Of a DNA stretch of 64,000 bases, positions 10,672 to 63,846 are shown in pieces. A program made the position numbers and the translations under genes. A model generated the notes under the pieces. That model did no database searches, was not told where the DNA came from, and worked only from the letters and a program-made list of their open reading frames with translations. This DNA is from an uncultured Chloroflexia bacterium. Its GTDB lineage: Bacteria; Chloroflexota; Limnocylindria; Limnocylindrales; CSP1-4. The DNA is taken from contig CAWIQP010000008.1 in the NCBI GenBank assembly GCA_963838285.1, positions 88,686 to 152,685 of the forward strand, written 5' to 3'. Position 1 is the stretch's first letter, and the number at the start of each line of letters is the position of its first letter.

Positions 10672-13600
10672 TCAGCCGCCGGAAGTGGTGAAGTACCCGG
10701 TCAGATCGAAGATGGCCTGAGCTGTCGGTCCGTTGGACGGTGCGACGAAGGTGATCGAGAGGGTGCCGTTCGTGCCGAGCTGCACGGCGACGGCGTTGGC
10801 GCGGTCGTCACCGACGCGGGAAGTTCAGCGTCGAGCTCGTCGGGTTGTTGGTAGCCGATCGGACCGATGTAGCAGATAGCCGCTGCTCGTCTGGCCGGTC
10901 ACGGTCAGGTTGCCGGTTACGGCTGCCGCAGCCGAAGGGACGCTGCCAGGGCAAACGTCCGTGCGGCATGGTTGGTGAAGGGACCAGCCAGGCCGCCGGT
11001 ACCGAGCGGGTGTCGAGGACGCGGTTCGGGCGAAAGCGGGACGTAGAGCGGCCCCGCTGAATGTCCGGCGGTGAAGTAGCCGGTGACATCGAAGATCGCC
11101 TGAGCGGTAGGGCCGTTGGACGGTGCCACGAAGGTGATCGAGAGAGTGTTGCTTGACCCGAGCTGGACCGTCACCGCGTTGGCCCGGTCGTCACCGAGCG
11201 GGAAGTTGAGAGTCGAGCTCGTCGGGTTGTTGGTAGCTACCGGACCGATGTAGAGATAGCCGCTGCTCGTCTGGCCGGTCACGGTCAGGTTGCCGGTGAC
11301 TGCGGTTGCACCGGCGGGAACGCCTGCCACCGTGAACGTTCTGGCGGCATGGTTGGTGAAGGGACCCGACAGGCCGCCTGTACCCGAGCGGGTGTCGAGT
11401 GCTCTAGTCGGTGCGATCGCGTGATACGTGGCACCGCTCGTATCGGGCGTGAAGTAGCCCGTCACATCGAAGATCGCGTGAGCCGTGGGCCCGTTGCCAG
11501 GTGCGACGAAGGTGATCGCCAGGGTGCTCCCGGCTCCTAGCTGCACAGTCACCGCGTTGGCTCGATCATCACCTACCGGGAAGTTGAGAGTCGAACTGGT
11601 CGGGTTGTTGGCAGCGACAGGACCGATGTAGAGATAGCCGCTCGACGTCTGCCCGGTCACGGTCAGGTTGCCTGTGACCGCTGTGGCGTTCGAGGGGACT
11701 CCTGCCACCGTGAACGTTCTCGCGGCATGGTTGGTGAAGGGACCCGAGAGACCGCCCGTGCCGTTGCGGGTGTCTAGGGCTCGCGTCGGGCTGATGGCGT
11801 GGTATGTGGCACCTGAGACGACACCCTGGACGCCGGTGATGGTGAGCTTGGCCGTGCCGATAGCCGTTCCGTCGGTGCCGGTCACGGTGTGATCGCCGGC
11901 AACCGTGGAAGTGCAGGAGTTGGCCGTGCAGGTTCCGCCGGCGATGGTGAAGGTGGTCGCGGAGGTGACGTCGAACAGGTCGTTGCCATAGGCGTCGAAG
12001 CCTTCGGCCGTGAAGGCCTGGGCAATGCCGGGGTTCACCGTCGCAGTAGAGGGGCTGAGAACCAGATGATCGAGAGCACCAGCAACCGCGATGATGGGGC
12101 CGCTCGTGCCGGTCCGAGACGAGGTGTCGGTGGCGGTGACGGTGTAGGTAGTACCCGCGGTCGTGCCGGTGGTGAAGCTCACGGTCGCGAGACCGGCGGC
12201 ATTGGTTGTGCTCGTGCCGGTGGCGAAGGAGCCACCGGAGCCGCTCTTGGACCAGGTGACGACGAGGCCGGATGTAGAGACCGGGTTGCCGTACGTGTCG
12301 GTGAGCTGGGCGCCGATCGTGACGGCGGTGCCGGCGATCGGGCCGTAGCCGCTGGAGGTGACGAGGTACTTGGTGGCGGCACCGGCCGTGCCGGTAGCGC
12401 TGAAGGTTACAGGTGAGCCGGTGAGTCCGGCGCTCGTGGCGGTCAGGGTGTTGGAGCCCGCGGTCTGACCCAGAGTCCAGCTCCCGACAGTCGCGATACC
12501 CGACGAGTTGGTAGTGGTTGAGCCGCCGCTGAGGGAGCCGCCACCGGAGCCGATCGCGAAGGTGACGCTGACACCTGAGACGGCGTTGCCGTAGGCGTCC
12601 TTGACGATGACGCTAGGAGCGATGGAGACGGCTGTGCCGACGGTGGCCGACTGGCCGTTGCCGGCGTTGACCGCGATCTGGGTCGGCGTTCCGGCCGTGC
12701 CTGTGGCGGTGAAGGTTACAGGCGAGCCGGTGAGTCCGGTGCTCGTGGCGGTCAGGGTGTTGGAGCCCGCGGTCTGACCCAGAGTCCAGCTCCCGACAGT
12801 CGCGATGCCCGAGGAGTTGGTAGTGGTCGAGCCACCGCTGAGAGAGCCGCCACCGGAGCCGATCGCGAAGGTGACGGCGACACCTGAGACGGCGTTGCCG
12901 TAGGCGTCCTTGACGATGACGCTGGGAGCGATGGAGACGGCTGTGCCGACGGTGGCCGACTGGCCGTTGCCGGCGTTGACCGCGATCTGGGTCGGCGTTC
13001 CGGCCGTGCCTGTGGCGGTGAAGGTTACAGGCGAGCCGGTGAGTCCGGTGCTCGTGGCGGTCAGGGTGTTGGAGCCCGCGGTCTGACCCAGAGTCCAGCT
13101 CCCGACAGTCGCGATACCCGACGAGTTGGTAGTGGTTGAGCCGCCGCTGAGGGAGCCGCCACCGGAGCCGATCGCGAAGGTGACGCTGACACCTGAGACG
13201 GCGTTGCCGTTGGCGTCCTTGACGATGACGCTAGGAGCGATGGAGACCGCTGTGCCGACGGTGGCCGACTGGCCGTTGCCGGCGTTGACGGCGATCTGGG
13301 TAGCGGCACCGGCGACGGTGGTGATGGGGCCGCTCGTGCCGGTCCGCGACGAGGTGTCGGTGGCGGTGACGGTGTAGGTAGTACCGGCGGTCGTGCCGGT
13401 GGTGAAGCTCACGGTCGCGAGACCGGCGGCATTGGTTGTGCTCGTGCCGGTAGCGAATGAGCCACCGGAGCCTGTCTTGGACCAGGTGACGACGAGGCCG
13501 GATGTAGAGACCGGGTTGCCGTACGTGTCGGCGAGCTGGGCGCCGATCGTGACGGCGGTACCGGCGATCGGGCCGTAGCCGCTAGAGGTAACGAGGTACT

Positions 13601-16600
13601 TGGTTGAGGCACCGGGCGTGGCGGTAGCGCTGAAGGTCACAGGTGAGCCGGTGAGTCCGGCGCTCGTGGCGGTCAGGGTGTTGGAGCCTGCGGTCTGACC
13701 CAGAGTCCAGCTCCCGACCGTGGCGATGCCCGAGGAGTTGGTGGTGGTTGAGCCGCCGCTGAGGGAGCCGCCGCCGGAGCCGATAGCGAAGGTGACGGCG
13801 ACACCTGAGACGGCGTTGCCGTAGGCGTCCTTGACGATGACGCTGGGAGCGATGGAGACGGCTGTGCCGACGGTGGCCGACTGGCCGTTGCCGGCGTTGA
13901 TGGCGATCTGAGTCGGCGGACTCGTCGGCATGATCTGGGACGAGGCGACCGAGGCCGGGCCCGTGCCGGCCGCGTTGGTGGCCGTCACCGTGAATGTGTA
14001 GGCCTTGCCGTACGTGAGGTTCGAGACCGTGCAGCTGAGCGCGCCGCCTGTCGTGCAGGTCTTGCCGTCGGGCGAGCTAGTGACCGTGTAGCCCGTGATC
14101 GTCGAGCCGCCGTTGTCGGCCGGCGCGATCCAGGAGACCAGGGCCGAGAGGTAGCCGGGAGTCGTGGCGCTCACACCCGTCGGCTGACCGGGCACGGTGA
14201 TCACGCTGATCCCTGACTGGGCGCCCGTGATCGAGGAGGTGCCGGTATCGGTGGCCGTCACGGACTGGCTGCCGACCGTCTCGAGCGTGACGCTGAAAGT
14301 ACCCACTCCATGGCTCAGGGTCGCGTCGCCCGAGAGAGTCGCCAGTGGATCCGAGCTGGTCAGATGTACGGTCCCCGTGTATCCGGTGGCCGTGTTCCCG
14401 TATGCGTCGAGAGCGGTAACCGTCGCGTTGTGGGCGACTCCCGCCACGTCGGGGCTCGGCAGCCCGGACACGGTGAGCGTCGCGGCGGCGCCGGCATTGA
14501 CGACGATCGCGCTCTGAGCACCCGAGATCCCGGTATGGACGGTGTCCGTAGCCGTAACCGCCTGCGTGCCCGCGGTCCGCAGCACCAGTGCGGGGCAGAG
14601 CGTGGGCGAACCGCTGCCGCAGGAGTAAGTCGCGAACGTATGCACACCGGCGTCACCGGCCGTGAAGGCGTACGCGGCGGGAAGGGTCGCCTGGGCATCC
14701 GTCGAGGTGAAGGCGACCGTCCCCAGGTAACCCGAGTCGGTGTTGCCGTAGGGGTCCTGCGCCGTGACCGTCACCGAGTCCCACGCCCCCGCGACCGAGG
14801 GATTGGCGATGCCTGAAACGACCAGAGTGGTGGCCGGCGCGGGCGTGACGACAATTCCGCTCTGCGTTCCCGTGGTCAGTGAGTTGGCGGTATCCGTGGC
14901 CGTCACGGACTGAGTGCCGGCCGTTCGCAGCACGACCGCGGGTGGACCGAACGTGTGGGTGCCCGCATCGCCGGCGGTGAACGTGTAGCTGGCGGGGAGA
15001 GTCGACTTCGGATCGGTCGAGGTGAAGGCGATAGTGCCCCGATAGGCCGCGTCGGTCGCCCCGCCCTGGTTCTGCGCCGTGACCGTGACCGAGTCCGACG
15101 CCCCGGCGACGGATGGATTGGCGATGCCCGTCACGGCCAACGTCGGCGCCCACGTGACGGTCACGGCCGAGGACGTTGCCAGTGGCAAGGTGCCGTTGCT
15201 CAGGGCCACGGCCGCGGTGTAGGTCTGGGACGCCGCGGCGCTGGACGTCACCGTAGTGCTGCACGTCGTTCCGGACGTGCAGTCCTTCACGACGGACCCG
15301 CCGCTCAATATCGCCAGGGTGTAGACGCCGGGCCCAACGATCTGGCCGGCCGTCGCGGTCAGCGTGACCGGAGTCCCGACCGTCACGTTCGTCGCGCTCG
15401 CCCCGAGGCTCACCTGCCACCCCATGAACGCGGCGATGCCGTTCGGAGTGCCGAGGCCCGTGGGTCCGTCGTAGCCCATTACTGCGTTGCACAGGTAGTA
15501 GGTGCTGCTGCCACTGGCGCCGCAGCTGCCGTTGCTGCCGGCGGTGACGTCGTTGAGGTTGCCGGTGTGGGAGTACAGCAGGCCGGCCGGGTACGAGCCC
15601 GGATTGCCGGCGAGGGCGTACATCGAGGCGATGATCGGCGACGAGACGCTCGTGCCGCCGAACACGGACCAACCGCCCGCACTGGCATCGTAGACGGCGA
15701 CGCCGGTGTTCGGGTCGGCGACCGCGGAGACGTCCGCGACCGTCCGCCTGGCGCAGCCCGCATCCGTCTGCCACGCCGGCTTCGCGTCGTAGCCTGAGCA
15801 GCCGCTTCCCGCGCCCGACCAGGCAGCCTCGGTCCAACCGCGAGGATTGCTGGCACGCGCGAGCGACGTCCCCCCGACCGCGACGACGTACTGCGACGCC
15901 GCCGGGTATTCGACTCCATAGCCGTCGTCGCCGGTGCTGGCGACGATCGCGACGCCCGGGTGGTGGTAGTAGCTCGAGTCGTAGGTCAGATCGCTCGAGC
16001 TCTCGCCTCCGCCGTAGCTGTTCGAGACGGCGACGGCGCCCAGCGAGACGGCCGTATTGACGGCTGTTCCCAGGTTGGCCACCGTGGCCGAAGCTGGCCT
16101 CGACCAGCAGGATGTGGCAGGCCGGACAGATCGCCGACACCATGTCCAGATCGAGGTCGATCTCTTCTCCCCAGCCAGCGTCGACCGTCGGGAGTGGCGA
16201 ACTGGCGCCGGTCTGATTGACCTTGCGGAAGCAGCCGTTGGCGGTCGTGCAAGCCGGCAGCCCGAACTGGGTCCTATAGGTGCCAAGGTCGGACTCGGCG
16301 TTGGGCTGGTCGTTGGCGTCCACGATCCCGACGGTGAGAGTGCTCGTGGCGGATTGCAGGTTGTAGGCGCTCCGCAGATCGGCCGGGCCAAAGCCACTGG
16401 GCGCCGTCATCGGGGAGATCGCGTCCGCGGCACGAGCGGCGATGTCCGTCCTGATCAGCGACAGGCAGTGGAAGAAACCCGGGCCCGGGTCAGGGCAAAC
16501 CTCGCGGGTCGTAGCGGAGGACGGGGCATTCGGCGCGGCGGAAGACGCGGGTGCGGCAGCTCCCGCGGCCGGCGAGGCCGCGGACACCATCCCTGGCGCG

Positions 16601-16686
16601 AGCCCCAGCGATCCGACGGCCAGCAGGATCCCGCACAGGATCCTCACGGCGGGACTTGCACCGACCGAGACGAGTGGCTTCATCGG
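10672..16686 (-). CDS. giant secreted S53 (sedolisin/kumamolisin-type) peptidase with an Ig-like/FN3 repeat C-terminal extension; reading frame interrupted
   Basis: N-terminal ORF 14653..16773: signal peptide MKPLVSVGASPAVRILCGILLAVGSLGLAPGMVSAA, then S53 pro/catalytic hallmarks (FGPADLRSAYNL, TVGIVDANDQPNAESDLGTYRTQFGLP). Main ORF 10917..16397 holds the catalytic core (AVSNSYGGGE, GGTSVSSPIIASMYA, C-terminal GYDGPTGLGTPNG). Then three approximately 95-aa Ig-like units, an FN3-like unit, Big_1-like units (TQIAVNAGNGQSATVGTAVSIAPSVIVKDAYGNAVSG...), and three approximately 125-aa unassigned repeats. Frame changes fall at about 16090 (ASFG / ATVANL) and at least twice in the last repeat; the uninterrupted C-terminus ...DLTGYFTTSGG ends at TGA 10672-10674. 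Confidence 0.8.
10680..11800. repeat. three tandem approximately 375-bp repeats encoding an unassigned 125-aa module; third copy degenerate or frameshifted
   Basis: Copies 1 and 2 read ATYHAI(S/A)PTRALDTR(N/S)GTGGLSGPFTNHAARTFTVAGVP...NNPTSSTLNFP...FDVTGYF. Copy 3 aligns at DNA level across 10680-11050 but spans three reading frames. Confidence 0.7.
12100..13920. repeat. near-identical tandem coding repeats (about 303-bp A units x4 and about 290-bp B units x2) inside the giant peptidase gene
   Basis: Protein units A1-B1-A2-A3-A4-B2 are above 95% identical. The shadow ORFs 12163..12348 and 13393..13578 are duplicates about 1,230 bp apart. This region is prone to assembly collapse, so copy number is uncertain. 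Confidence 0.8.
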
Positions 16687-24350: not shown

Positions 24351-27300
24351 ATGAGCGACCGCAGCGGGGAGACGGCCGGCGACCTGAAGCTCCGGGCCTG
24401 GAACATGGTGCCGGTGGTCGTGGCCGACACGGCCGGCCGCGTGCTCACGTTGACGCCGGCCGCAATGTCCATGTTCGGATGGGACCGGGAAGAGGACCTG
24501 GTCGGCCATCCGGTCACGGACTTCGTGGCCCCCGAGGACAGGGACCGGGCCGTCTCCAAGATAGGCCGACTTGTTGCGGGCGAGGCGGTTGGCCCGGCTC
24601 AATACTTCGGGCTCCGGAAGGATGGGGCCGCCATCGCGATAGAGGTGAGCGGCGAACTACTGCGCGGCGCCGACGGGTCCGCGAGCGGCCTCTCGCTCCT
24701 GATCCGCGAGATGGCCGAGGGGCAGCGCGCGGAGTCGGACCTGATCCAGGAGCGATCGCTGCTGGAAGCGCTGATGGAGAACACGCCGGACCACGTCTAT
24801 TTCAAGGATGCCGACTGCCGCTTCATCATGATCAGCAGGGCCCACGCCAGGGCCTTCGGACTTGCCGATCCCGCTCAGGCCGTTGGCAAGACGGACTTCG
24901 ATTTCTTCACCGAAGAGCACGCCCGGCTGGCCTACGAGAACGAACTCGAGATCATGAGAACCGGGCTTCCCATGGTCGACTTCGAGGAGAAGGAGACACA
25001 TCTCGACGGCCGGGAGACGTGGGTCTCCACGACCAAGCTGGTTCGCACCGACAAGCGCGGGAAGACGCTCGGCACTCTCGGCATCTCGCGGGACATCACC
25101 AGGCGCAAGCAGGACGAGGTTGCCCTGCGCGAGAGCGAGGAGAAGTACCGGACCCTGGTCGAGAAGGCGAACGAGGCCATCTACATCGTCCAGGACGGCG
25201 CATTCGTCTTCGCCAATCGGAGGCTGTCCGACCTGGTGGGCATGCCGGCCGAAGCTCTGCTCGGCAGGCCTTTCCTCGACTTCATCTGCCCCGAGGACAG
25301 GGATCTCGTCCGCGCCAACTACGCGAAGCGGATGGACGGAGAAGAGGTCACCGAAGCCTACGACTTCAGGATGATCGGAGCCGGAGGGGCGACTCTGTGG
25401 GTCTTCCTGTCGGTCGCGAGGATTCAGTGGAACGGCAGGCCGGCGACACTGAACCTTCTCAGCGACATCACCGCGCGCAAGCAGGCGGAGGAGAGGCTCG
25501 CCCAGACCAACCGCGCCCTCGAGGAGGCTACGGCCCGCGCCGAGTCGGCCAACAAGGCCAAGAGCGAATTCCTGGCCAACATGAGCCACGAGATTCGGAC
25601 CCCGATGAACGGCGTGATCGGCATGACCGAGCTGCTTCTCGACACCAGACTCAGCCACGAGCAGCGGCGCTACGCGGAGACGGTGCGCGCCAGCGGCGAG
25701 GCCCTTCTCGGGCTCCTCAACGACATCCTCGACTTCTCCAAGATCGAGGCGGGCAAGCTCGAGCTGGAGACGATCGACTTCGACGTGCGCGCTCTGCTCG
25801 ACGACTTCGCCGCCCTGCTGGCGCGGCGCGCCCAGGACAAGGGGCTCGAGTTCATCTGCGCCGCCGCGCCCGACGTTCCGGCCAACCTCAGCGGCGACCC
25901 GGGCCGCCTGCGCCAGATTCTCCTGAACCTGGCCGGCAACGCGGTCAAGTTCACCCACAGCGGCGAGATCGTGGTGAGAGCGACCGTCGTGTCGGAGTCC
26001 GAGACCGAGGTCGTCCTGCGGTTCTCGGTGAAGGACACCGGCATCGGCATCGCGCCCGACAAGCAGGCGCTCATGTTCCAGAAGTTCACGCAAGCGGACG
26101 CCTCGACAACCCGCCAGTACGGCGGCACCGGTCTCGGGCTGGCCATCTCGAAGCAGCTGGCCGAACTCATGGGCGGCGAGATCGGTCTCGTGAGCGAGGA
26201 GGGGCTCGGTTCGGAGTTCTGGTTCACCGCGCGCTTCGGCAAGCAGGCCGGTCTGGAACGCAACGTCCCGCCGCCGGCCCAGATACACGGGGTCCACATC
26301 CTCGTCGTTGACGACAACCCCACCAATCGCGAGATCCTGGCAGCCCAGCTCAACGCCTGGGGCATGCGGTCCGAGGTGGTCGCCGACGGCCCCTCGGCGC
26401 TCCTGGCCCTCGCGCACGCCAGGGATGCAGGAGATCCTTTCGCGGCGGCGATCCTCGACATGCAGATGCCGGGCATGGACGGAGCGGGCCTCGCCCGGGC
26501 CATCAAGGCCGACGAAACCCTGGCCGGCACCCGCCTGGTGATGATGACTTCGATCGGGCAATCGGGGCGACGCGCGGCAGATGGAGGAGATCGGGTTCTC
26601 CGCCTACCTGGTCAAGCCCGCGCGGCAGTCGGACCTGTTCGACTGCCTGGCCGTCGTGCTGGCCGGCGAAGCCGTTTCCAGGCCGGCACAACCCATAGTC
26701 ACGCGCCACGCGATCCGCGAGATGCGCCGGCAATCGCGTCGCATCCTGCTGGCCGAGGACAACATCACCAACCGCAGGTGGCCCTCGGCATCCTCAAGAA
26801 GTTCGGTCTGCACGCGGATGCCGTATCCAACGGTGCCGAGGCCGTCGCCGCCCTCGAGTCGATCCCGTACGACCTGGTCCTGATGGACGTTCAGATGCCC
26901 ACCATGGACGGCCTCGAGGCGACGATTCACATACGCGACCCGCGGTCGGCCGTCCGGAATCACGACGTACCGATCGTCGCCATGACCGCCCACGCCATGC
27001 AGGGCGACCGTGAGAGGTGCCTCAGAGTCGGAATGAACGACTACGTCAGCAAGCCGGTCTCGCCGGCGGCCCTGGCGGAGGCACTGGATAGATGGCTGCC
27101 CCGCGACGACGCCCCGAGACCGCCGGAGGCGTCCGCCGAGGCCGGTGCGTCGGCCTCCGCGACAGCGGAACCGTCGGCGGCAGACTACTCCGAAAGGTCC
27201 GTGTTCGACCGGACGGGCCTGCTGTCCCGCTTGATGGACGACGAAGACCTGGCGCGCACGGTGGTCGAAGGATTCCTGGAGGACATCCCCAGGCAGGCCG

Positions 27301-27554
27301 CGGCGCTCCGCGGTCATCTGGATGCCGGCGACGCCGAAGGGGCGACGCGCCAGGCTCACACGATCAAGGGCGCATCGGCCAACGTCGGCGGCGAGGCGGT
27401 GCGCGCGGCGGCCCTCGAGATCGAGAAGGCCGCCCGGGCCGGCGATCTCGCCGCGGCCGCGTCGCATCTCCCCGACCTCGAGACGCGCCTGGTCCGACTC
27501 ACCACGGCGATGCGGGCTTTCGTCGGCGAGGGCGGGCCGGAGGCGGCCTCGTGA
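24351..27554 (+). CDS. hybrid sensor histidine kinase: three to four PAS, HisKA, HATPase_c, two REC domains and a C-terminal Hpt
   Basis: ORF 24270..27554 (TTG start); first in-frame ATG is 24351. HisKA ([19 protein letters not shown]), HATPase (DTGIGIAPD...[10 protein letters not shown]), REC1 ([14 protein letters not shown]...DMQMPGMDG), REC2 ([13 protein letters not shown]...KPV) and Hpt ([14 protein letters not shown]). The stretch 26570-26770 is out of frame: the correct frame is ORF 26581..26883 ([13 protein letters not shown]...[12 protein letters not shown]), so two compensating frameshifts. Confidence 0.85.
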
Positions 27555-43929: not shown

Positions 43930-44825
43930 ATGCCGGAAGCCGACAACGCCGAAGAGAAGAGCTACTACGAAGACGTTCCGCAGCGAAACAGCGCCTTCTT
44001 CCTCAAGGGCGCCGGGGCATACGACTGGGGCATGCAGAACCGCCTGGCCCGGGTCTTCAACCCGGAGAGCGGCAAGACGGTCATGCTGGCCGTCACTACG
44101 GTTACTTCATGGGCCCGACGTCGGGCCTCGAGCGGATCGACGTCAACATCGTGCCGCTCGTCCCCTACACCGACGCCCTCTTCTGCACACGCGGCATCCT
44201 GCGGACAGTCGTACCCGCGGCGACCCGTACGCCGAACGTCCTTCGCGCAAGCGGCGGTCCCTCGATCCTCAAGGAGCTGTCGAACGAGCAGATCGCCATG
44301 GACATGGAGGATGCCGTCCGGCTGAACAGCTGCGGGGTCGGCGTCCAGGTCTTCGTCGGTGGTGAGTTCGAGACCCAGTCCATCCACAACATGACCCGCC
44401 TGGTGGACGCCGGGCTCCGGGTAGGACTGCCCGTCCTGGGCGTCACCGCCGTCGGCAAGGACATGGTCCGCGACGCCAAGTACTTCCGCCTCGCGACCCG
44501 CATCTGCGCCGAGCTGGGCGCCCAGATGGTCAAGACCTACTACGTGCCCGACGGTTTCGAGACCGTCACGGCGTCGTGCCCGGTGCCGATCGTCATGGCC
44601 GGCGGCAAGAAGCTGCCCGAGATCGAGGCCCTGACGATGGCCTATCGGGCCGTCCAGGAAGGCGCCGCCGGAGTCGACATGGGCCGCAACATGTTCCAGA
44701 GCGAGTCGCCCGTAGCCATGATCCAGGCCGTCCGCAAGGTGGTGCACGAGGCCATGAAGCCCGAGCACGCGCTGGAGCTGTTCAAGACGCTCACGTCCGA
44801 GTCCAAGCAGCCCGTCGGCGCGTAG
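43930..44825 (+). CDS. class I aldolase of the DhnA/LsrF (DeoC-fold) family; one frameshift
   Basis: ATG at 43930 ([35 protein letters not shown]...GKTVMLAV). It continues in ORF 43545..44825 as [12 protein letters not shown]...KTYY...MAGGKK (Schiff-base lysine region). One base is missing in gtcactacggttac near 44096. Confidence 0.75.
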
Positions 44826-44834
44826 GCACCCGCG

Positions 44835-45566
44835 ATGGCGACGACAGCGCACCTGCCGTTTCTCGACGGCAGGGCTCGCCTGACCATCGGGATCAACACC
44901 GCCGACCTGGGGCACCTTGCCGACGAGGTCCGCGTCCTCGAGGACGCCCGGGCCGAGATCGTCCACGTCGACGTCATGGACGGCGTCTTCTGCCCGGCGA
45001 CCACCGTCGGGCCGCCCTTCATCAAGGCGATCAGGACGCCGCTTCTCAAGGACGCCCACCTTATGATCGTCGACCCGATCGAGAAGGTGGCCGACTACGT
45101 CGCGGCGGGCGCCGACATCGTCACCTTCCAGGTCGAGTCCACTCGCCATTCCTATCGGGGCCTGCAGGTCCTCGGCAAGGCCGAGAACGCCAACGACCCG
45201 GCCCGCGGGATCGTCCGGGGAGTGGCGCTCAACCCGGGGACGCCCGTATCGGCGGTGGAGCCGCTGCTCGACGAGATCGGGAGTACGTGCTCATCCTGGC
45301 CGTCAATCCCGGCTGGGGCGGCCAGAAGTTCATCGAGTCCACCGAACGCCGCATGGCCGAAGCGGAAGGTTCTATCAAGCGCTCCGGCCGGCAGATCATG
45401 CTCGGCGCCGACGGCGGCGTGACGAAGGACAACATCGCCAGAGTCGCCGGCCATGGGGCCGAACCTCATCGTCACCGGCAGCGCCGTCTTCGACGGCAAG
45501 ACTCCGGCCGACAACGCCCGTTTCATGCTCGACGCGGTCCGGGGCATCGCGGTGGCGACGACGTAG
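44835..45566 (+). CDS. ribulose-phosphate 3-epimerase family protein; two compensating frameshifts
   Basis: N-terminal part (IVHVDVMDGVFCP, ...ALNPGTPV) in ORF 44835..45422. Middle (EYVLILAVNPGWGGQKFIESTERRMAEA...IMLGADGGV) lies in the frame of ORF 44576..45631. The C-terminus (GPNLIVTGSAVFDGKTPADNARFMLDAVRGIAVATT*) returns to the first frame, with stop at 45564-45566. Confidence 0.75.
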
Positions 45567-50665: not shown

Positions 50666-51627
50666 ATGGCAACCAATGCGGCAGCCCCGAAGGTAAGCCT
50701 GGCGGAGTTCGACCGCATCTTCGAGTCGGTCAAGAACTGGGGGAAATGGGCTCGGACGACCAGCTCGGAACCCTGAACTACATCACCCGCGACAAGGTTC
50801 GTCAGGCGGCGGGCCTGGTCAAGTCGGGCCGGCAGGTCTCAATGGAGATCCCCATCAACAAGGCGGCCGGCCCGGACAATCCCAACCAGGCTTTCCACTA
50901 TCTCACCCAGGGGCACGACATCGACATCGGCTCGAGCGGACTCACTTTCGCGCTCGACTTCCTGGGAATGGCGTGCCACGGCGACTGCCACACCCACATC
51001 GACGCGCTCTGCCATATCGCCTACAAAGGCCTCACCTACAACGGCAAGCCCGCCAACGAGGTCATCACCTCGAAGGGCGCGACCACGCTGGACATCACCA
51101 GCTACGCGAACGGCCTGGTCGGCCGCGGCGTACTCCTGGATATCCCGCGCCTGCGAGGCGTCAAGTGGCTCGAGCCCGGCGAGGCCGTCCGGCGCGACGA
51201 ACTCGAAGCGTGCGAGAAGAGCATCGGCCTCACGCTGGGCGAAGGCGACATCCTGGTATTCCGAACAGGCCACCACCGCCGCCGGCCTCGAGCTCGGCGC
51301 GTGGAGCAACGATCCGCCGCCGGCCGGCGAAGGCAAGGCCGGCCTTCACGTCGACACGATCCCCTGGATGCACGAGCGCAGGATCGCCGCCTTCCTTCCC
51401 GATGGCGACGGCGAAGCGGTGCCCAGCGTGGTCGAGGGAATGATCTATCCGATCCACCCGCTGCAGATAACAGCGATGGGCATGCTCGCCTCGGACAGCC
51501 TCCAGTTCGAGGACCTGGCCCGCGCCTGCGAGGAAGAGGGCCGATGGGAGTTCATGGTCGTGGGTCTGCCACTCCGCCTCCCCGGCGGCACGGGCTCTCC
51601 CTGGAATCCGATAGCGATCTTCTGATG
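50666..51627 (+). CDS. cyclase-family protein (kynurenine-formamidase / isatin-hydrolase-like metal hydrolase); two frameshifts
   Basis: Start MATNAAAPKVSLAEFDRIFESVKNWGKW; G-homopolymer loss near 50745; middle in the ORF 49369..51690 frame (SDDQLGTLNYITRDKV...HGDCHTHIDALCHIAYKG: the H-x-D / H metal motif); C-terminus in ORF 51368..51625 (MHERRIAAF...). Confidence 0.7.
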
Positions 51628-51779: not shown

Positions 51780-53345
51780 ATGGCACAAGCATTGCCAGCT
51801 GTGTCGGTAGCCGAAACCAACCTAAAGGCAGGCGCCCTGAAGCTGCCATCCCATCTTCATGCAGAGCCTGACGATGGTCGCGCCGGGCATCGCCGCGGTG
51901 TTCTACACGCCCGTCGTCGTCAGCCAGGCCGGGCTCGCCGCGCCGCTGGCGTATCCAATCGCGGGCATCATCGTCCTCCTCACCGCCATCGTTCTCGCGC
52001 GGACTGGCGCGGGCAGTACCGTCCGCGGGCGGCTACTACACCTACGTTGCCAAGGGCATCCACCCGCGTGCCGGGTTCATCGTTCTCCTGGCTGAACATC
52101 ATCTACGCCCCGCTCGTGCTGGGCGCCGTGACCGTCTTCGGCGGCTATGTGATCTCCAGCTCGCTCAGCTGGACCGGTTTCTTCCAGGACTGGTTCCCGC
52201 TCCTGTTCGGTCTGGTCGCGGTCACGGTGGTGGCCTTCATCCAGTACCTGGGAGTCCAGCTGTCAGGCAAGACCCTGGTCGTCCTCGGCGGCATTGAGCT
52301 GATCGTCGTCTTCATCCTCGGCCTGTGGGGCCTCGCCAGCCCCGGACCGGGCGGTTTGAACCTCAAGCCGTTCGATCCGGGCAACGCGGTCAGCGCCTCC
52401 GGCCTTTTCCTGGCCGCCGTGTTCGCCATCCAGGCGTTCACCGGATGGGAAGGCGCCGCTCCGATGGCCGAGGAGACCGAGAACCCGCGCCGGAACGTTC
52501 CGCGCGCGCTCATCGGCTCGGTGATCCTCTTGGGCATCTTCATCATCGTCGTCCAGTGGGGCGTGATGGTCGGCTGGGGCACGGACAACCTCAAGACCAT
52601 TGCCAGTTCCACGGTGCTGCCGGGCATCGCGCTCGCGCAGAGGTTCTGGGGTGGTGCCTGGGGCATCCTCCTGCTGATGCTCTGCTCCTCCGTGGTGGCC
52701 GTGTCCATCGCCTGCGCCAACGTCGGCACCCGGATGTGGTACCGCATGGGCGTGGACGGCGCGTTCCCCAAGTGGTTCGCCAAGGTCGACTCGACCCGCA
52801 AGACCCCGATCAACGCGATCATCGCCCAGTGGGTCCTGGCCATCGCGACCGTTCTCGGCCTGACGCTCCTCGCCTATGTGGCCAGCCCGGCTCCGACGGG
52901 CGGCTCGGTCAACATGACCCTGGCCTACCAGAACCAGTACTACTTCGACGGCTACCTCATCGGCTACGTCGTCCTGGCGATCTACACGCTGGGCAACGTC
53001 GCGGCCTTCATGCTGTACTGGAACCAGCGCCGCTCCGAGTTCAACTGGATCCTGCACGGGCTCTTCCCGCTGCTTTCCACCCTCGGCATGATCGCCGTCC
53101 TGCTGTTCTCGCTGAACATCATCGGCGGCGATCCGCTGACGTTCCAGCCGGGCAGCGCCAGCCTGCCGCCGGCGCCGTTCAACATCGCCGTCGTGTTCGT
53201 CGCGGTCTGGATCGTCGTGGCCTGCGCACTCGTCGTGTACATGCGATTGGCCGGCCACGAGGACTGGATCGCCAAGGCGGCGGAGGCTGCTTCCGAGCGG
53301 CCCGCGACGCCGGAGGAGATCGCCGAGGCAGCCAGCAAGTGGTAA
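51780..53345 (+). CDS. APC-superfamily amino-acid permease; about three frameshifts in the first 300 bp
   Basis: 12-TM profile in ORF 51780..53345 from SWLNIIYAPLVLGAVTVFGG onward. The N-terminus is spread across frames (ORF 51859..52095 MQSLTMVAPGIAAVFYTPVVVSQAGLAAPLAYPIAGIIVLLTAIVLAR; a third frame gives PSAGGYYTYVAKGIHPRAGFIV). Confidence 0.75.
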   Translation: MAQALPAVSVAETNLKAGALKLPSHLHAEPDDGRAGHRRGVLHARRRQPGRARRAAGVSNRGHHRPPHRHRSRADWRGQYRPRAATTPTLPRASTRVPGSSFSWLNIIYAPLVLGAVTVFGGYVISSSLSWTGFFQDWFPLLFGLVAVTVVAFIQYLGVQLSGKTLVVLGGIELIVVFILGLWGLASPGPGGLNLKPFDPGNAVSASGLFLAAVFAIQAFTGWEGAAPMAEETENPRRNVPRALIGSVILLGIFIIVVQWGVMVGWGTDNLKTIASSTVLPGIALAQRFWGGAWGILLLMLCSSVVAVSIACANVGTRMWYRMGVDGAFPKWFAKVDSTRKTPINAIIAQWVLAIATVLGLTLLAYVASPAPTGGSVNMTLAYQNQYYFDGYLIGYVVLAIYTLGNVAAFMLYWNQRRSEFNWILHGLFPLLSTLGMIAVLLFSLNIIGGDPLTFQPGSASLPPAPFNIAVVFVAVWIVVACALVVYMRLAGHEDWIAKAAEAASERPATPEEIAEAASKW

Positions 53346-53463: not shown

Positions 53464-54583
53464 ATGCCTGAGCTATTCGGCAGTTCCTACTCTCGGTCGG
53501 ATCTCCTTCGCCACGTCGGTAGGCTCGAGCAGGTGGCCGGCGTCCGGCTGGTCACTCTCGGCGACAGCATCGGTCGTGGCGTCAGGGTGCTCGAGTTCCG
53601 GACGGGCTCGGGCTTCTCGTTCGATATCGTGGTGGATCGCTGCTTCGACATCGGCCGGTGCGAGATGGACGGCCGGCCGCTCAACTGGCAGGGCAACCCC
53701 GGCATCACCGGGCCGTGGTACTACGAGAACGACGAATGGGGCTGGTTCCGCTCCTGGGGCGGCGGGATGGTCGTGACCTGCGGCCTGGATCACACGCTGG
53801 GCCTCCGGCGAGGACGACGCCAGCGACTACCACCAGCCCCACATCTTCAAGACGGTCCACTACTCGCTCCACGGCCGAGTCGGCGGTCTGCCGGCCCGGC
53901 TCGTCGGCTACGGCGAGCGCTGGGACGGCGACGAGTGCGTCCTCTGGGCCGAGGGCGAAGTGCTCCAGTCGGCGATCTTCGGCGAGCATCTGCTGTTGCG
54001 ACGCCGAGTCGAGGCTCGCGTCGGCGAGGCTCACTTCACGATCCACGACGAGGTCGAGAACGTCGGGCACAACCGCACCTCGCACATGCTCCTGTATCAC
54101 TGCAACGCCGGCTTCCCGGTGATGGACGAGGGGTCGCGACTGCTGGTCCCATCACTCAAGACGACCACCGACTACGACGTGACGCCCGAATTGATGGCGA
54201 GCTACCGCACGCTCACCGGACCCATCAAGGACTACAGCGAGAAGTGCTTCGAGCACGAGCTGGTGGCCGAGAAGGACGGCAAGGTGCCGGTCGCCATCGT
54301 GAACCGGAAGCTCGGCTTGGGCGTCTACCAGGTCTTCCGCATCGACCAGCTGCCGCATCACACGGTCTGGCGGATGATGGGCGAGGACAGCTACGCCATG
54401 GCCATGGAGCCCGGCACCAATCGCGACGCGGGCCGCTGGGACGCCAAGCAGCGCGGCGAACTCCAGCACATGGAGCCCGGCGACGTCCGGCGCTACGACC
54501 TGGAGATCGGCGCCCTGGTGGGCGATACGGCGATCGATGGCTTCGCGGCCCGAGTCGAGAAGCTCGTGCCGGATCCGAAGTAG
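53464..54583 (+). CDS. DUF4432-family protein (aldose-1-epimerase-like fold, commonly in sugar catabolic loci); one frameshift
   Basis: N-terminus in ORF 53464..54927 up to ...VVTCGLDHTLG. Frame change near 53815 (homopolymer). It continues through EDDASDYHQPHIFKTVHYSLHGRVGGLPARLVGYGERWDGDECVLWAEGEV into ORF 53960..54583. Confidence 0.6.
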
Positions 54584-55114: not shown

Positions 55115-55897
55115 TCAGCCGGCCGCGGAATCCTCCGCCGTGAGCGTGCGACTGGCAATGCTTCCCGCGTGGGCTATCCGGGCGAATTCGGCCGGGTCGA
55201 GCGCGCTCCGCCCGACGAACAGGCCGTTCACCCCGGGTTGGACCAGGATGCCCCCGGCAATGTCCGCGCTCACGCTGCCGCCGTAGATCACCGGCACCTC
55301 GGCCCCGCGCCCGACGTTCTCCCGCAACCAGGTGTGGATCGCGCCGTGGACCTCGCCGACCCACCCGGGTTCCGCGGGCGCCGACCCGACGCCGATCGCC
55401 CAGACGGGCTCGTACGCCAGCACGAGACGGCTCGCGTCGGCGGACGCCAGCAGCTCCAGCTGGCGGCGGACGCGGGTAATGACCCCGGCCAGGGGCTCCC
55501 GCTGCCGGTTGGCCGACGCACACTATCGCCGTCATGCCCCAACGCTGGATCGCGGAGACCTGGGCCGGGACTCGCTCGTCGGACGCGCCCTGCATCGCAC
55601 CGCCGCTGCGCAGATGGCCGACCTCGACGTACGTGCAGCCAAGATCGGCCAGCATCGGGGCGGACACGTCCCCCGTGTGAGCGCCCGAGTCCTCCGGGGT
55701 CCACGTCCTGCGCTCCCCACGCGACCCGGCTCCCCGCGGAGCCCCTGGGCGACCGCCCAGATCGCCGTGAATGGCGGAAGCACGAAGAGATCACAATCCA
55801 CGACGTCGTCCACCAGGGGCCGCGGCGCCCAGCAGATATCGCGAGGCCTCACTCGAGGTGAATTTTTAGTCCAGCTCGTGCCAATGAGCATGCACAT
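55115..55897 (-). CDS. triosephosphate-isomerase paralog (TIM-like; candidate tetrulose-phosphate isomerase, LerI/EryH-like); multiple frameshifts
   Basis: N-terminus M(C)MLIGTSWTKNS...VLPPFTAIWAVAQGL (ORF 55532..55897); middle GAHTGDVSAPMLADLGCTYVEVGHLRSGG...IVCVG (frame of ORF 54225..55667); C-terminus LVLAYEPVWAIGVG...VIYGGSV...GLFVGRSAL (ORF 55115..55423). At least three indels at about 55690, 55670 and 55510. Confidence 0.75.
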
Positions 55898-57604: not shown

Positions 57605-58075
57605 TCAGACTCGGCCTGAGTCGGGCGTGCGTTCGCCGGCCGTGATCTTATTCACCTTGCGCTCGGATTCCCCGCCGGAGAACTCGGAGGCGAGCCAGAT
57701 GCGCACCAGCGACTTCGCGAGCTCGGGCCCGACGACGCGCGCGCCCATGGTCATGATCTGGGTGTTGTTCGACTTCCGCGACCGCTCGGCCGAATAGGGG
57801 TCGTGCACCTGGGCGGCCCGGATCGGGCACCTTGTTGGCCGTGATTGCCATGCCGATCCCGGTGCCGCAGATGAGGACCCCCTATCGTGCTCGCCGCGAG
57901 CGATGGCGTGGGCGACCTCGTAGCCGATGTCCGGGTAGTCGACGCTGTCGAGCGAGTAGCAGCCGTAGTCCTTGACCTCGATCTCCTCATCGTGCAGCAG
58001 CTCGATCACCGTTTGCTTGAGTGCGAAGCCCGCCTCGTCGCATCCGATGGCAATCTCACGGTACTTGGAAGTCAC
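57605..58075 (-). CDS. RpiB/LacA/LacB-family sugar-phosphate isomerase (candidate D-erythrulose-4-P / ribose-5-P isomerase, DerI/EryI-like); two compensating frameshifts
   Basis: GTG at 58073-58075 with AGGTG 5 nt upstream gives VTSKYREIAIGCDEAGFALKQ...DYPDIGYEVAHAIARGEHDRG. Then G-homopolymer loss; (V)LICGTGIGMAITANKVP in the frame of ORF 57648..57851; back in frame for IRAAQVHDPYSAERSRKSNNTQIMTMGARVVG...RKVNKI. Confidence 0.8.
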   Translation of the reverse strand: MTSKYREIAIGCDEAGFALKQTVIELLHDEEIEVKDYGCYSLDSVDYPDIGYEVAHAIARGEHDRGSSSAAPGSAWQSRPTRCPIRAAQVHDPYSAERSRKSNNTQIMTMGARVVGPELAKSLVRIWLASEFSGGESERKVNKITAGERTPDSGRV

Positions 58076-58184
58076 GCTCGCACCTGCGCGAGTTGGTCCT
58101 CGAGATCGTCGCCCGTCAGGGTCCGGCCATCGACGGCCGGCGTCGATTGCGCTGCCTCCATTCTCTCTCTTCTCCTCGTCGGCC

Positions 58185-59753
58185 ATGGAAATGTCGCCGC
58201 CCGCCCGACCTGCGGTCCGAGGTCGATCTGCTACCGTTCCCGGTCGTGGAGCAGCGCAGCCGACCTCGTCGGGCAGACGACCGACCCCCTTCGGGCCGGA
58301 AGCCGGGGTAGCCACGGTCGCGGACGCGGCCGCCTCGGGCCCGACCGCTGAGCTCGATCTGTCGGCGCTCGCCTCGGCGCTCGCGACGTCCGACCCCTCC
58401 GGCCGTCGTCATCCGATCGGGCTGCGTCGGATCCTGATCGGCGACGACGCGCTGACATCCCTGCCGGGCGTCGTGGCCGAGCTGAAGCAGGTCGGGCCGG
58501 TCGTGATGCTGACCGACCCTACCCCCATGAACAGGCGCGGCGAGGACCTCAAGCCTGCCGTCCTGCGACTCCTGGCCGGCACGTTTCCGTGCCGGTGGGA
58601 GATCGTTCGGGGCAGCGCGGCCCAGCTGCACGCGGAAGAGGGTTCCATCGCCGAGGCTCAGACCCTGGTGGCCGGAGCCGGCTGCGTCGTCGTCGTCGGC
58701 TCGGGCACCATCACCGACATCGGCAAGGAGGCCACCCGGCGCGCGGGCGGCATCCCGCTCGTCGCCGTCCAGACGGCGGTTTCCGTCAACGCCTTCTCCG
58801 ACGACATGGCAGTCCTCCTCATCGACGGGGTGAAGCGAACCGTGCCGTCGCGCTGGCCGGATGCCCTCGTGGTCGATCTGTCGGTCATCGCGGATGCGCC
58901 TGTCGAGATGAACAGGGCCGGGTTCGGCGAGCTGGCCTCGATGTATACCGCGCCCGCGGACTGGTACCTCGCCGGCGCGGCCGGCATGGACGACGGCTGG
59001 CTCGGGGCCCCGGTGGAGCTGGCACGCCGGGAGGCCGAGGCACTGCTGGCGGCGGCCGTGCGGATCCACGACCGGGAGCGCGACGCCCTGGCGCTGCTGG
59101 TCCGGGCCATGACGATGAGCGGGATCGCGCTCGGAATCGCGGGCAAGACGGCCCCCCTGTCGGGGAGCGAGCATCTCATAAGCCACATGCTCGACATGGA
59201 CGCGGCGGCGACTGGCCGGGAGGCGGCCTTCCACGGCGCGCAGGTCGGCGTTGGGTCGATCCTGATGGCGATCGTCTGGCGCGAGACACTCGCCCGCTGG
59301 TACGCGGGCGGGTTCGAGATCGGACGACTGTATCCGTCCGCGACCGATCTGGAACCGCAGGTTCGGGCGGCATTCTCGCGCCTGGATCCGTCGGGCCGGG
59401 CCGCGGACGAATGCTGGCGCGACTACTCGCGTAAGCTGGATCGCTGGCACGCGGCGAGACCGCGATTCGAAGCTTTCGTGCGCGATTGGCCGAGGCACAG
59501 GGCGGCGCTCGGATCGCTGGTCGCGGATCCGGCCACGCTCGCCGCGGCCATCGAGCGATCCGGTGCGCCGGCGCGCTTCTCGCAGCTTCGACCGGCGGTT
59601 TCCCCGGACGTCGCCCGCTGGGCTCTCCGCCACTGCCACCTCATGCGCGACCGGTTCACGGTCATGGACCTGCGCTTCTTCGCGGGAAGCTGGGGCGACG
59701 AGGACGTCGAGTCGGCGCTGGGTGTCGCGGCCGGGTTGGGGGCCGGCCTGTGA
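58185..59753 (+). CDS. iron-containing alcohol dehydrogenase superfamily protein, glycerol-1-phosphate dehydrogenase (EgsA/AraM)-like
   Basis: ORF 57972..59753; start uncertain (ATG 58185, or internal starts up to about 58330). Conserved core from IGLRRILIGDDAL...VVVGSGTITDIGKEA (nucleotide loop)...D...H...H metal ligands (SEHLISHMLD...FHGAQVG). Confidence 0.7.
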   Translation: MEMSPPARPAVRGRSATVPGRGAAQPTSSGRRPTPFGPEAGVATVADAAASGPTAELDLSALASALATSDPSGRRHPIGLRRILIGDDALTSLPGVVAELKQVGPVVMLTDPTPMNRRGEDLKPAVLRLLAGTFPCRWEIVRGSAAQLHAEEGSIAEAQTLVAGAGCVVVVGSGTITDIGKEATRRAGGIPLVAVQTAVSVNAFSDDMAVLLIDGVKRTVPSRWPDALVVDLSVIADAPVEMNRAGFGELASMYTAPADWYLAGAAGMDDGWLGAPVELARREAEALLAAAVRIHDRERDALALLVRAMTMSGIALGIAGKTAPLSGSEHLISHMLDMDAAATGREAAFHGAQVGVGSILMAIVWRETLARWYAGGFEIGRLYPSATDLEPQVRAAFSRLDPSGRAADECWRDYSRKLDRWHAARPRFEAFVRDWPRHRAALGSLVADPATLAAAIERSGAPARFSQLRPAVSPDVARWALRHCHLMRDRFTVMDLRFFAGSWGDEDVESALGVAAGLGAGL

Positions 59754-62493: not shown

Positions 62494-63027
62494 CTAACTG
62501 CCTGTAGGGCGACCCTGTTCAGGGCCGCCCTCATCGGCAGTCGGGGTTACGGGACCGAATAGGCGAGGTTGACCGTCGCGCCCTTGCAGGCATCCTGGTT
62601 CGACGCCTTGTCGTTGAACTTGATCTGCGGGCCGCTCCAGGCTTCCCACGCCGGTCCCGGCCAGGATCTCGGCGTTCACGGTTGCCTGCGTCGGCGAGAG
62701 CGTGAAGTCGGTGGGGTCGCAGGTTCCAGAAGGTGCCCCGGCCGCTTTGGTGACCGAGACGATGCTGACGGTCACGGTAGAGATATAGACCGGGCCGGCG
62801 TTCCCGTTGTCGAAGTCGCCGCTGAGCGTCTGGGCGTTGCCACCCGGGTACATCGGGCTGAGCGCGGGGCGGTCTCGTGGACGACGACGTTGACTACCGT
62901 TACCGGCGCTGGCGGTTCCAGTGCCGGACCCGCTCGCCGTCCAGAACGCATAGGCGACCCCGCTGGCAGCGACAACCGCCAGCAGACCGATCGCCAGCGG
63001 AAGGAGCAGCCGCTTCTTCATCCTCAT
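62494..63027 (-). CDS. secreted protein with a SipW-cognate-type signal peptide (TasA-like), first gene of the trio; frameshifted
   Basis: AAAGGGGAGAAG RBS then MRMKKRLLLPLAIGLLAVVAASGVAYAFWTASG. The body (GDFDNGNAGPVYISTVTVSIVSVTKAAGAPSGTCDPTDFTL) parallels gene 2. The C-terminus is probably in another frame (AWEAWSGPQIKFNDKASNQDACKGATVNLAYSVP*, TAA at 62547-62549), and there is a short out-of-frame stretch near 62870-62895. Confidence 0.55.
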   Translation of the reverse strand: MRMKKRLLLPLAIGLLAVVAASGVAYAFWTASGSGTGTASAGNGSQRRRPRDRPALSPMYPGGNAQTLSGDFDNGNAGPVYISTVTVSIVSVTKAAGAPSGTCDPTDFTLSPTQATVNAEILAGTGVGSLERPADQVQRQGVEPGCLQGRDGQPRLFGPVTPTADEGGPEQGRPTGS

Positions 63028-63323: not shown

Positions 63324-63846
63324 TCAGCCTCCCAGAGCGAACCGCTCCGCGACCGTCCACGACCCCTCCTCCTCGCTACCGACCATCAGCCAGACTTGGT
63401 CGACCGAGGATCGAATCGGGAGACCCGGCGTGACCTCCGCCTCGGCGACGGCGATCTCCTCGAGCGTGGCACCGGCGGCGATCGAGAGATGCGGGATCAC
63501 CTCGCGAAAAGACCCTCCGTAAGGCGGGTAGTCTGGGAACTCCCGCACGATGATTCTCGGTCAGGGTGCGAAAGGGTCCGTCTGGCGACGGCGCAAGATA
63601 CAGGACTTGGTTGCCAAAGCGGCGAGGTCCCACGAGCGAGAAGGCGAACGGCTCCGCCCCGCCCACCAGGGTTCGCAGGCGAGAAACCGCGCCGGCGTCG
63701 ACGGTCTCCGGCGGCGCAAATGGATAGACCAGGGTGATGTGTGCGGGAATGCCCCAGCGCGCACTCCGGTCCAGCTGCCAGCGCCACGAGCCGACGAGTT
63801 GCTCCGCCGCAGGGACCGGGACGATCAACGCGCTCAAGGTTGGCAT
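63324..63846 (-). CDS. 2H phosphoesterase superfamily protein (LigT / 2'-5' RNA ligase-like); one frameshift
   Basis: ORF 63376..63846 (MPTLSALIVPVPAAE...GIPAHITLVYPF: first H-x-T motif) continues after an A-homopolymer frame change near 63540 into ORF 63324..63548 (...REFPDYPPYGGSFREVIPHLSIA: second H-x-S motif). Confidence 0.6.

Follow-up and report, generated by a model that had tools for sequence, protein, structure and literature searches.

Small indels interrupting 13 genes of a Limnocylindria-like Chloroflexota contig very probably reflect consensus errors rather than gene decay

RESULTS

Frame disruptions across the window

The window, i.e., the whole 64,000-nucleotide stretch analysed here, belongs to a 152,685-bp contig of a Candidatus Limnocylindria-like Chloroflexota metagenome-assembled genome (MAG). 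It encodes a giant secreted repeat protein, a hybrid histidine kinase and, between 44 and 58 kb, a sugar/dihydroxyacetone catabolic island. By combining a codon-usage frame caller, the continuity of Pfam matches and alignments of relatives, we found approximately 37 small indels of 1 or 2 nucleotides (nt) across 13 genes, from 10.7 to 63.6 kb (Table 1). The pervasive frame disruptions reported in a preliminary description of this DNA, which counted at least 25, are thus real but were undercounted. All but one of its 22 explicit sites are no more than 18 nt away from an indel; the remaining one, at "about 55670", has no exact counterpart. That description did not list several events of the triosephosphate isomerase-family (TIM) gene, nor that at the start of the Fe-dependent alcohol dehydrogenase (Fe-ADH) gene.

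The Viterbi frame caller, which is independent of the preliminary description, placed same-strand frame switches at nearly all the sites listed. When the pieces were stitched together, one continuous Pfam match ran over each junction for LytR_cpsA_psr, Ribul_P_3_epim, Cyclase, AA_permease, DUF4432, TIM and LacAB_rpiB. Tblastn searches with the ORFs of up to 33 related loci revealed frame jumps at positions 44095, 50744, 51286, 51852, 52003, 52079 and 53801. A scan of genome contigs yielded different species only, with at most 89% amino acid identity, and these matches therefore serve to locate the frame jumps, not to tell error from decay. The exact events were fixed by base-level alignment to near-identical sister contigs. 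The repaired genes contain neither nonsense substitutions nor internal stops, and the lesions of the window are exclusively 1- to 2-nt indels, apart from one in-frame hexamer repeat difference. The density of indels is 3.5 times higher in the 44- to 58.3-kb region than elsewhere in the window.

Table 1. Genes and sites affected by small indels in the window. Positions are those of the window; + and - before a number denote inserted and missing bases.
Feature	Coordinates	Strand	Indels and associated changes	Intact product
Giant secreted repeat protein	10675..16683	-	16091 (+1 A), and nine events in third C-terminal tandem repeat	2001 aa, single ORF in contig_79000
Giant protein, C-terminal events (pairwise alignment)	10815, 10855, 10873, 10944, 11004, 11023, 11048, 11059, 11070	-	-1 each at 10944 and 11004; +1 each at the others	
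Hybrid histidine kinase (PAS, HisKA, HATPase_c, two REC domains, Hpt)	24351..27554	+	26559 (+1 C), 26772 (-1 A)	1067 aa in contig_79000
LCP-family protein (LCP3)	33454..35081	+	34402-34403 (+2); LytR_cpsA_psr match spans junction	541 aa in P0126 (ENA) and contig_79000
DeoC/LacD-family aldolase	43930..44825	+	44094 (-1, G); adjoining substitution at 44097	298 aa in L081, L082, L084
Ribulose-phosphate 3-epimerase (RPE)	44835..45566	+	45276-45277 (+2), 45447 (+1); garbled blocks 45150-45160, 45365-45373	242 aa in L082, L083
Putative cyclase	50666..51625	+	50747 (-1, G4 to G3), 51284 (+1 G); wrong-frame stop 50774-50776	319 aa in L081, L083, L084, L085
Intergenic insertion private to window	51696	.	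+1 (G3 to G4)	
Amino acid permease	51780..53345	+	51850 (+1 C), 52003 (+1 A), 52083 (+1 T)	520 aa in L081, L083, L084, L085
DUF4432 protein	53464..54583	+	53804 (+1, T), private to window; Pfam match 1-302/304 across junction	
TIM-family gene	55115..55897	-	Seven events; garbled blocks 55590-55614, 55862-55869	258-259 aa in L081, L083, L085
TIM gene, events	55504, 55593, 55611-2, 55696, 55732, 55836, 55861	-	+2 at 55611-2; -1 at 55861; +1 each at the others	
RpiB/LacAB isomerase	57605..58075	-	57822 (-2), 57883 (-1)	157 aa in 5/5 sister contigs
Fe-ADH	58246..59753	+	58278 (-1); first 11 codons out of frame	502 aa in sister contigs
Small secreted protein ("secreted gene 3")	62547..63027	-	62640 (+1), 62869 (-1), 62900 (+1)	159 aa in contig_79000
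2H phosphoesterase (2_5_RNA_ligase2)	63324..63846	-	63552 (+1, G)	173 aa in contig_79000, full Pfam match

Consequences for individual genes

The consequences differ from gene to gene. The frame caller placed the upstream switch in the gene for the giant protein at 16086/16087. This gene had been assigned to the S53 family, a name that we have not adopted because Pfam gives no match for the N-terminal 422 residues. The kinase ORF stays open (24270-27554), but the last part of REC1 and the first part of REC2, 73 residues in all, are out of frame. With this segment restored, the Response_reg match scored 141.8 bits instead of 123.8, and the second receiver domain was complete. Ten JGI relatives among the matches listed carry the restored segment in the frame of its flanks, and the window reading occurs in them only off-frame. 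The metagenome contig scan gave no near-identical contig for the kinase C terminus among the matches listed, the best reaching 81%.

For LCP3, the intact ENA protein and two partial JGI proteins that cross the site without a frame change (P0122 and P0123) all change frame at 34398/34407 when aligned to the window. The two halves have been deposited as separate proteins of the source contig (P0045, 342 residues, and P0125, 182 residues), as expected from the earlier prediction that annotation would fragment such genes. The Pfam DeoC match on the stitched aldolase stops short of the junction; the break in this gene rests on tblastn with related loci and on the sister-contig alignment, not on Pfam continuity. 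The wrong frame of RPE reaches a stop at 45420-45422, ahead of the second indel.

The permease ORF stays open as well, encoding 521 residues of which about 78 are out of frame. The RpiB ORF is also open (57605-58411), with about 20 residues, including the conserved active-site loop, out of frame. The frame jump in the DUF4432 gene was seen with 33 related loci. This gene also harbors 21 evenly spaced substitutions private to the window, which look like true strain variation.

Comparison with sister contigs

Five sister contigs with 98.8 to 99.3% nucleotide identity together span positions 7 to 64 kb of the window: one ENA contig of 94 kb, three ENA contigs of about 19.5 kb, and one JGI contig. 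None of the window indels is present in them at any checkable site. The population is also represented by a 2.6-kb contig of the Logan run ERR11594402, 99.5% identical and free of gaps, by JGI 3300081534, and by a further ENA sister contig of 66,600 bp that encodes P0128 and P0250. In a six-way alignment of the 41- to 59-kb region, 20 indel events are private to the window, which has none in common with the other contigs. The private events of the other contigs number 0 for the JGI contig (L085), 7 for L083, 13 for L084, 42 for L082 and 4 for L081, and 12 further events are common to L081 and L084, both of which come from the same assembly. A single gene of one ENA sister carries up to 21 frameshifts. 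Over the 13.2 kb from 45.1 to 58.3 kb, the window has 19 private events versus none for the JGI contig, in which every gene is full length. The indel load of the window is therefore far above background.

In the majority consensus of the six contigs, each of the 17 genes has a length that is a multiple of 3 and is free of internal stops. Because this consensus gives all 17 genes intact, the sugar island is predicted to be functional in the population. The real decay of this region that the preliminary description had left open is not borne out, the genes being intact in the JGI contig also. The single-frame genes of the sister contigs and related loci provide the frame continuity that it had proposed to look for in close relatives.

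Between 10.7 and 41 kb and between 59 and 64 kb, the comparison was made mainly with one sister contig, and polarity was deduced from coding logic, not from a majority. Contig_79000 is intact where the window is broken, in the genes for the giant protein, the kinase, LCP3, the small secreted protein and the 2H phosphoesterase. It has errors of its own at sites that are correct in the window. A UvrD-like gene has three +1 insertions, and an NAD_binding_1 gene is split by a deletion at 29369.

Many frame-switch calls were also obtained for related MAGs from Nanopore-only Flye + Medaka assemblies. That count is crude, with a false-positive floor of about 1 to 2 per 10 kb from overlapping genes, and we thus used it only qualitatively. 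The sugar island was assembled as a separate contig of about 19.5 kb in three assemblies, twice in one of them. We looked in the window for repeats flanking the 41.1- to 60.7-kb segment that would explain this separate assembly and found none.

Signature of the indels

According to the preliminary description, several of the lesions were losses of one base from G or A runs. This was not confirmed: insertions make up 28 of the 38 events, and runs of 3 or more bases are involved in only 4. The homopolymer association that is the classic signature of Nanopore or 454 data is thus lacking, although error in a low-coverage consensus does not require it.

Miscalled bases accompany the indels. Of 75 substitutions private to the window, 24 are located within 10 nt (alignment columns) of a private indel, compared with an expectation of about 2. 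These 24 show no codon-position bias (10/6/8 for the three positions), whereas strain differences gather at third positions (8/5/47 for L083 and 12/4/30 for L085). Multi-base garbled blocks are found with the indels as well. The indels are clustered, with 61% of successive gaps shorter than 300 nt versus 18% expected (P < 0.0002) and a variance-to-mean ratio of 2.9. Bursts lie at 10.8-11.1, 26.5-26.8, 45.1-45.5, 50.7-52.1, 55.5-55.9, 57.8-58.3 and 62.6-62.9 kb. Between the indels, the third-position GC periodicity keeps the original frame, indicating that the frame changes are very recent or not real.

Frame-compensating sets

In seven of the eight window genes that were hit more than once, the net indel length is divisible by 3. 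Error that is blind to frame would not predict such a proportion (roughly P = 0.003 to 0.01, judged after the fact). Among 11 multi-hit genes of the sister contigs, only 4 have a net length of this kind, a proportion at chance level; this argues against the earlier reading of compensating pairs as a signature of polishing error. We consider it improbable that the kinase, permease and RpiB sets are real compensated variants or that the excess in the window stems from an unrecognised, frame-sensitive bias of consensus building or polishing. A frame-aware correction tool was considered as the source of the distant compensating indels and rejected, as there are no N bases and distances of 200 to 550 nt would be too large.

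DISCUSSION

Taken together, sequence comparisons make it very likely that the frame disruptions are consensus errors of the assembled contig and not marks of decaying genes, in line with the preference stated in the preliminary description. The contig would carry small consensus indels, often with a few wrong bases alongside. These errors would fall in bursts of roughly 200 to 550 nt, for which too few reads, or mixed ones, probably went into the consensus. The genes of the organism, including the whole 44- to 58-kb island, would be intact in the population. From the sister contig names, which are of the form contig_N, we infer a long-read, Flye-type assembly platform. The cause may have been low or mixed coverage where the assembly graph was tangled, the island being assembled as a separate contig. 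A literature search for the ENA, JGI and Logan accessions, made to establish the platform, yielded nothing. Three features expected of consensus error were observed: the window indels are lacking in independent sequences of the same population, assemblies of the same style bear different indels while the JGI contig from another pipeline bears none, and the indels are accompanied by adjacent miscalls without codon-position bias.

Private indels are also what strain-specific decay is expected to look like. The window strain might truly be pseudogenising, with dozens of recent frameshifts, densest in the sugar island, in genes that related strains elsewhere have kept. The higher density of indels in the island and the resemblance of some private substitutions to strain variation, such as those in the DUF4432 gene, fit with this possibility, which we nevertheless regard as very unlikely. 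Every ENA sister has an unrelated set of frameshifts, the two contigs from one assembly have events in common, and the JGI contig has none; the pattern thus tracks assembly, not lineage. No lesions appear to be inherited and nested, and there are neither nonsense mutations nor larger deletions. Substitutions crowd beside the indels irrespective of codon position and in garbled blocks, genes outside the island are struck too, namely those for the kinase, the LCP protein and the giant surface protein, and some 37 indels at roughly 1% substitution divergence would represent an implausible mutation spectrum. Even less probable are true compensated frameshift variants, in which the kinase, the permease and RpiB would be full-length proteins with a short recoded segment. 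Their open ORFs and the excess of net multiples of 3 speak for such variants, but open off-frames are common at 69% GC, and the sister contigs have net-zero sets only at chance level. The recoding would ruin conserved motifs, i.e., the end of REC1, the "ILLAEDN" sequence at the start of REC2 and the RpiB active-site loop, and the codon periodicity remains that of the old frame. In RPE, the cyclase and the TIM gene, the wrong frames stop before the next indel, and restoration of the frame there cannot have been selected. Programmed ribosomal frameshifting or other recoding, to which nothing points beyond the frame changes inside conserved genes, is barely conceivable, given that the sites have no slippery motif in common, are not conserved even at 99% identity, and correspond to single-frame orthologues in the sister contigs and in dozens of relatives.

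Consensus indels of long-read assemblies (Nanopore or PacBio CLR) truncate or split predicted proteins, which is measured by the IDEEL test, and homopolymer deletions are the classic pattern of Nanopore error. The window resembles such cases in its 1- to 2-nt indels in conserved genes and in the split gene calls deposited for LCP3. It departs from the classic pattern in that the events are mostly insertions outside homopolymers and occur in bursts with wrong bases adjoining, on a platform that is itself deduced. Genomes undergoing reductive evolution, such as those of Mycobacterium leprae and recent symbionts, are rich in pseudogenes. The window shares with them the large number of conserved genes with frameshifts and their local concentration in a dispensable catabolic island; unlike them, it lacks nonsense mutations, larger deletions and lesions nested among 99%-identical relatives, and the sets differ from assembly to assembly. 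The likeness to compensated +1/-1 frameshifts, with several genes at a net multiple of 3 and three ORFs open, is offset by the recoded conserved motifs, the stops that intervene in three genes and the codon-position signal in the old frame. Indel-driven frameshifts are documented in Nanopore consensus sequences, which need polishing, especially for bins below approximately 40-fold coverage (PMC9262707). The present case, in which the indels vary from one assembly of the population to the next and the contig of another pipeline has none, fits with low-coverage bins of this kind (PMC9262707).

The importance of these disruptions is practical rather than biological, as they represent an artefact. 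At least 13 genes of the window would be annotated as fragments, as pseudogenes or as proteins with garbled segments, affecting a complete sugar/dihydroxyacetone catabolic cluster, a hybrid histidine kinase and a giant surface protein. As the kinase, the permease and RpiB keep open ORFs, length-based checks such as IDEEL would miss them. A corrected consensus can be built from the sister contigs. It would be wrong to conclude from the present contig that the genome is decaying, that metabolic functions have been lost or that there are new short ORFs.

Frame disruptions in the window

Reading frames were called in the window (66-71% GC) from third-position GC phase and by Viterbi segmentation on codon usage, with the window itself as training set. 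Both methods placed same-strand frame switches, away from stop codons, at almost every position where the preliminary description had proposed a disruption. Proteins stitched across the junctions gave one unbroken Pfam match each (LytR_cpsA_psr, Ribul_P_3_epim, Cyclase, AA_permease, DUF4432, TIM and LacAB_rpiB), the sole exception being the aldolase, whose DeoC match stops short of the junction. The 73-residue segment restored in the hybrid kinase forms a typical receiver-domain end followed by a receiver-domain start; with it, Response_reg scores 141.8 bits instead of 123.8.

With the repaired DUF4432 protein as query, the window grouped with MAGs of Chloroflexota carrying the label Candidatus Limnocylindria or Limnocylindrales. 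Amino-acid identity is 84-89% for the top-ranking loci (L001, L002 and L003), and positions 43.4-54.9 kb are syntenic with L001 and L003 at ~82% nucleotide identity. Comparison with ORFs of up to 33 related loci revealed frame jumps at seven points, where nucleotide alignments show gaps of 1-2 nt. The frame switches, the continuity of the Pfam matches and the jumps and gaps relative to relatives thus establish that the disruptions are real; an indel lies within 18 nt of 21 of the 22 coordinates originally proposed. Thirteen genes are affected, including one missing from the initial list, Fe-ADH, with an indel at its start (58278).

Frame switches and indels in affected genes of the window
Gene	Called frame switches	Frame jumps (related loci)	Indels relative to contig_79000	Net-multiple-of-three set
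Giant secreted protein	16086		16091 +1; nine events in 10815-11070	+6
Hybrid kinase	26553/26772		26559 +1, 26772 -1	+1-1
LCP3	34404		34402-3 +2	
Aldolase	44094	44095		
RPE	45276/45438			+2+1
Cyclase	50736/51261	50744, 51286		-1+1
Permease	52023/52089	51852, 52003, 52079		+1+1+1
DUF4432	53805	53801		
TIM	55518			+6
RpiB	57825/57876			-2-1
Secreted protein	62634/62865/62898		62640 +1, 62869 -1, 62900 +1	exception
2H phosphoesterase			63552 +1	

The giant gene (10675-16683, minus strand) encodes a secreted protein of ~2000 residues with internal Big_1/fn3-type repeats of 93-98% nucleotide identity (12079-13918) and three C-terminal tandem repeats of ~127 residues each. Its N-terminal 422 residues gave no Pfam match at E<=0.01, so the earlier label of S53 peptidase is not supported.

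Broken genes differ between contigs of the same population

An exact-protein search with an intact regulator gene (48130-49143) retrieved five contigs of the same population, 97.6-99.3% identical to the window: the 94-kb ENA contig_79000 (ERZ25039480), three ENA contigs of ~19.5 kb each (from ERZ25039479, ERZ25039473 and ERZ25039480) and a 13-kb contig from JGI sample 3300081534. When all six sequences were aligned over 41-59 kb, 20 indel events (14 insertions and 6 deletions) proved private to the window, and none of its indels is common to any other contig. Each ENA contig has 4 to 42 private events at other sites, and the JGI contig has none, yet 52 private substitutions. Twelve events are common to both ERZ25039480 contigs, 11 of them insertions in a single Ala_racemase_N gene. 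The set of broken genes varies from contig to contig, and in the majority consensus all 17 genes have a length divisible by three and lack internal stops.

Coverage by contig_79000 was widened to 7-64 kb of the window by further exact-protein look-ups. Where the window is broken, contig_79000 encodes intact forms of the giant protein (2001 residues), the kinase (1067), LCP3 (541), the secreted protein (159) and the 2H phosphoesterase (173); two partial JGI proteins (P0122 and P0123) also cross the LCP3 site in an unchanged frame. Conversely, the window is correct where contig_79000 has three +1 insertions in a UvrD-like helicase gene (equivalent to 7856, 8106 and 8154), which recode ~100 residues and leave the ORF open, and a 1-nt deletion (equivalent to 29369) that cuts a NAD_binding_1 reductase into 276 and 31 residues.

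Further differences between the two are single bases in intergenic or 5′ positions (29700, in a G5 run; 32389, +A; 41083, +A), where either contig may be wrong, and a frame-preserving length difference of 6 nt in a (GGCGTG)n hexamer repeat (36115-36120), the sole indel of the comparison that resembles ordinary repeat-number variation. At 32217/32218, contig_79000 has 613 additional nt (8153-8765 of its L088 part), 363 of which match window 36011-36373 at 96% identity; the gene there encodes 536 residues in contig_79000 and 303 in the window, reflecting either duplication in one assembly or collapse in the other. Just beyond the 2H phosphoesterase, past the 3′ end of the window, contig_79000 (L089 1-8400) carries a Phage_integrase fragment, an AbiEi/zeta-toxin-like protein, a PadR regulator and an ECF sigma factor, which may represent an adjoining mobile-element context.

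Consensus error versus gene decay

Of the 75 window-private substitutions, 24 occur at a distance of at most 10 alignment columns from a private indel (~2 expected), and these are evenly spread over codon positions (10/6/8). Private substitutions of two sister contigs favor third positions (8/5/47 in the ENA contig L083, 12/4/30 in the JGI contig), as true strain variation should. Multi-base blocks are garbled at 45365-45373, 55590-55614, 55862-55869 and 58088-58093. Events are strongly clustered, with 61% of successive distances below 300 nt where 18% would be expected (P<0.0002), and bursts are mostly one-directional: 21 deletions in the permease of the ENA contig L082, 11 insertions in the racemase-like gene of both ERZ25039480 contigs, and six insertions in the window TIM gene. 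The homopolymer argument of the preliminary description fails, as insertions make up 28 of the 38 window events and only four events involve a homopolymer of at least three bases.

DUF4432 (53491-54413) also has 21 evenly spaced private substitutions (11 synonymous, 10 mostly conservative non-synonymous), almost all distant from its single indel (53804); this pattern suggests a recombination tract or genuine divergence between strains rather than error.

The broken genes are assembly-specific, a different pipeline produced a contig free of such errors, wrong bases adjoin the indels, and the consensus of the population keeps the genes intact. Taken together, these findings make consensus error, the reading preferred from the outset, very probable as the cause of the disruptions, rather than gene decay. 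Decay of the sugar island had been considered for its high density of disruptions, which is indeed the highest (1.40 indels per kb in 44-58.3 kb, 0.40 elsewhere in the window). The window frameshifts come with neither nonsense mutations nor larger deletions. True decay of the island appears very improbable in the window's strain and is effectively excluded at the population level. The relatives include MAGs assembled from Nanopore reads alone with Flye and Medaka; the names of the sister contigs (contig_N form) are similar to theirs, and we infer a long-read Flye-type assembly for the window's contig; frameshift-causing indels are documented in low-coverage Nanopore bins (PMC9262707). In three ENA assemblies, the segment from 41.1 to ~60.7 kb forms a ~19.5-kb contig of its own, and the raised density plausibly reflects a tangled assembly graph. 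That segment occurs twice in ERZ25039480 (contig_79000 and contig_138931, with the 12 common events), suggesting a strain-variable or duplicated segment or reads used twice; a search within the window found no flanking repeats.

As errors come in bursts, several indels per gene are expected. Compensating sets, proposed earlier as a mark of polishing error, do occur: net indel length is a multiple of three in seven of eight multi-hit window genes (P roughly 0.003-0.01, assuming about 1/3 to 0.4 per gene and judged post hoc). As evidence for such error they do not hold, the sister contigs being at chance level (4 of 11). Selection on translation is ruled out as the cause of the excess because a wrong-frame stop precedes the next indel in RPE, the cyclase and TIM, and recoding destroys conserved motifs in the kinase and RpiB. 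The excess is probably chance.

Consequences for annotation

Gene fragmentation by annotation, as had been forecast, is seen in the deposited 152,685-bp source contig (NCBI and ENA), where LCP3 is split into P0045 (342 residues) and P0125 (182 residues). Length-based checks would miss the damage in the kinase, the permease and RpiB, whose ORFs remain open although segments within them are garbled. The frame disruptions themselves are of low biological interest.
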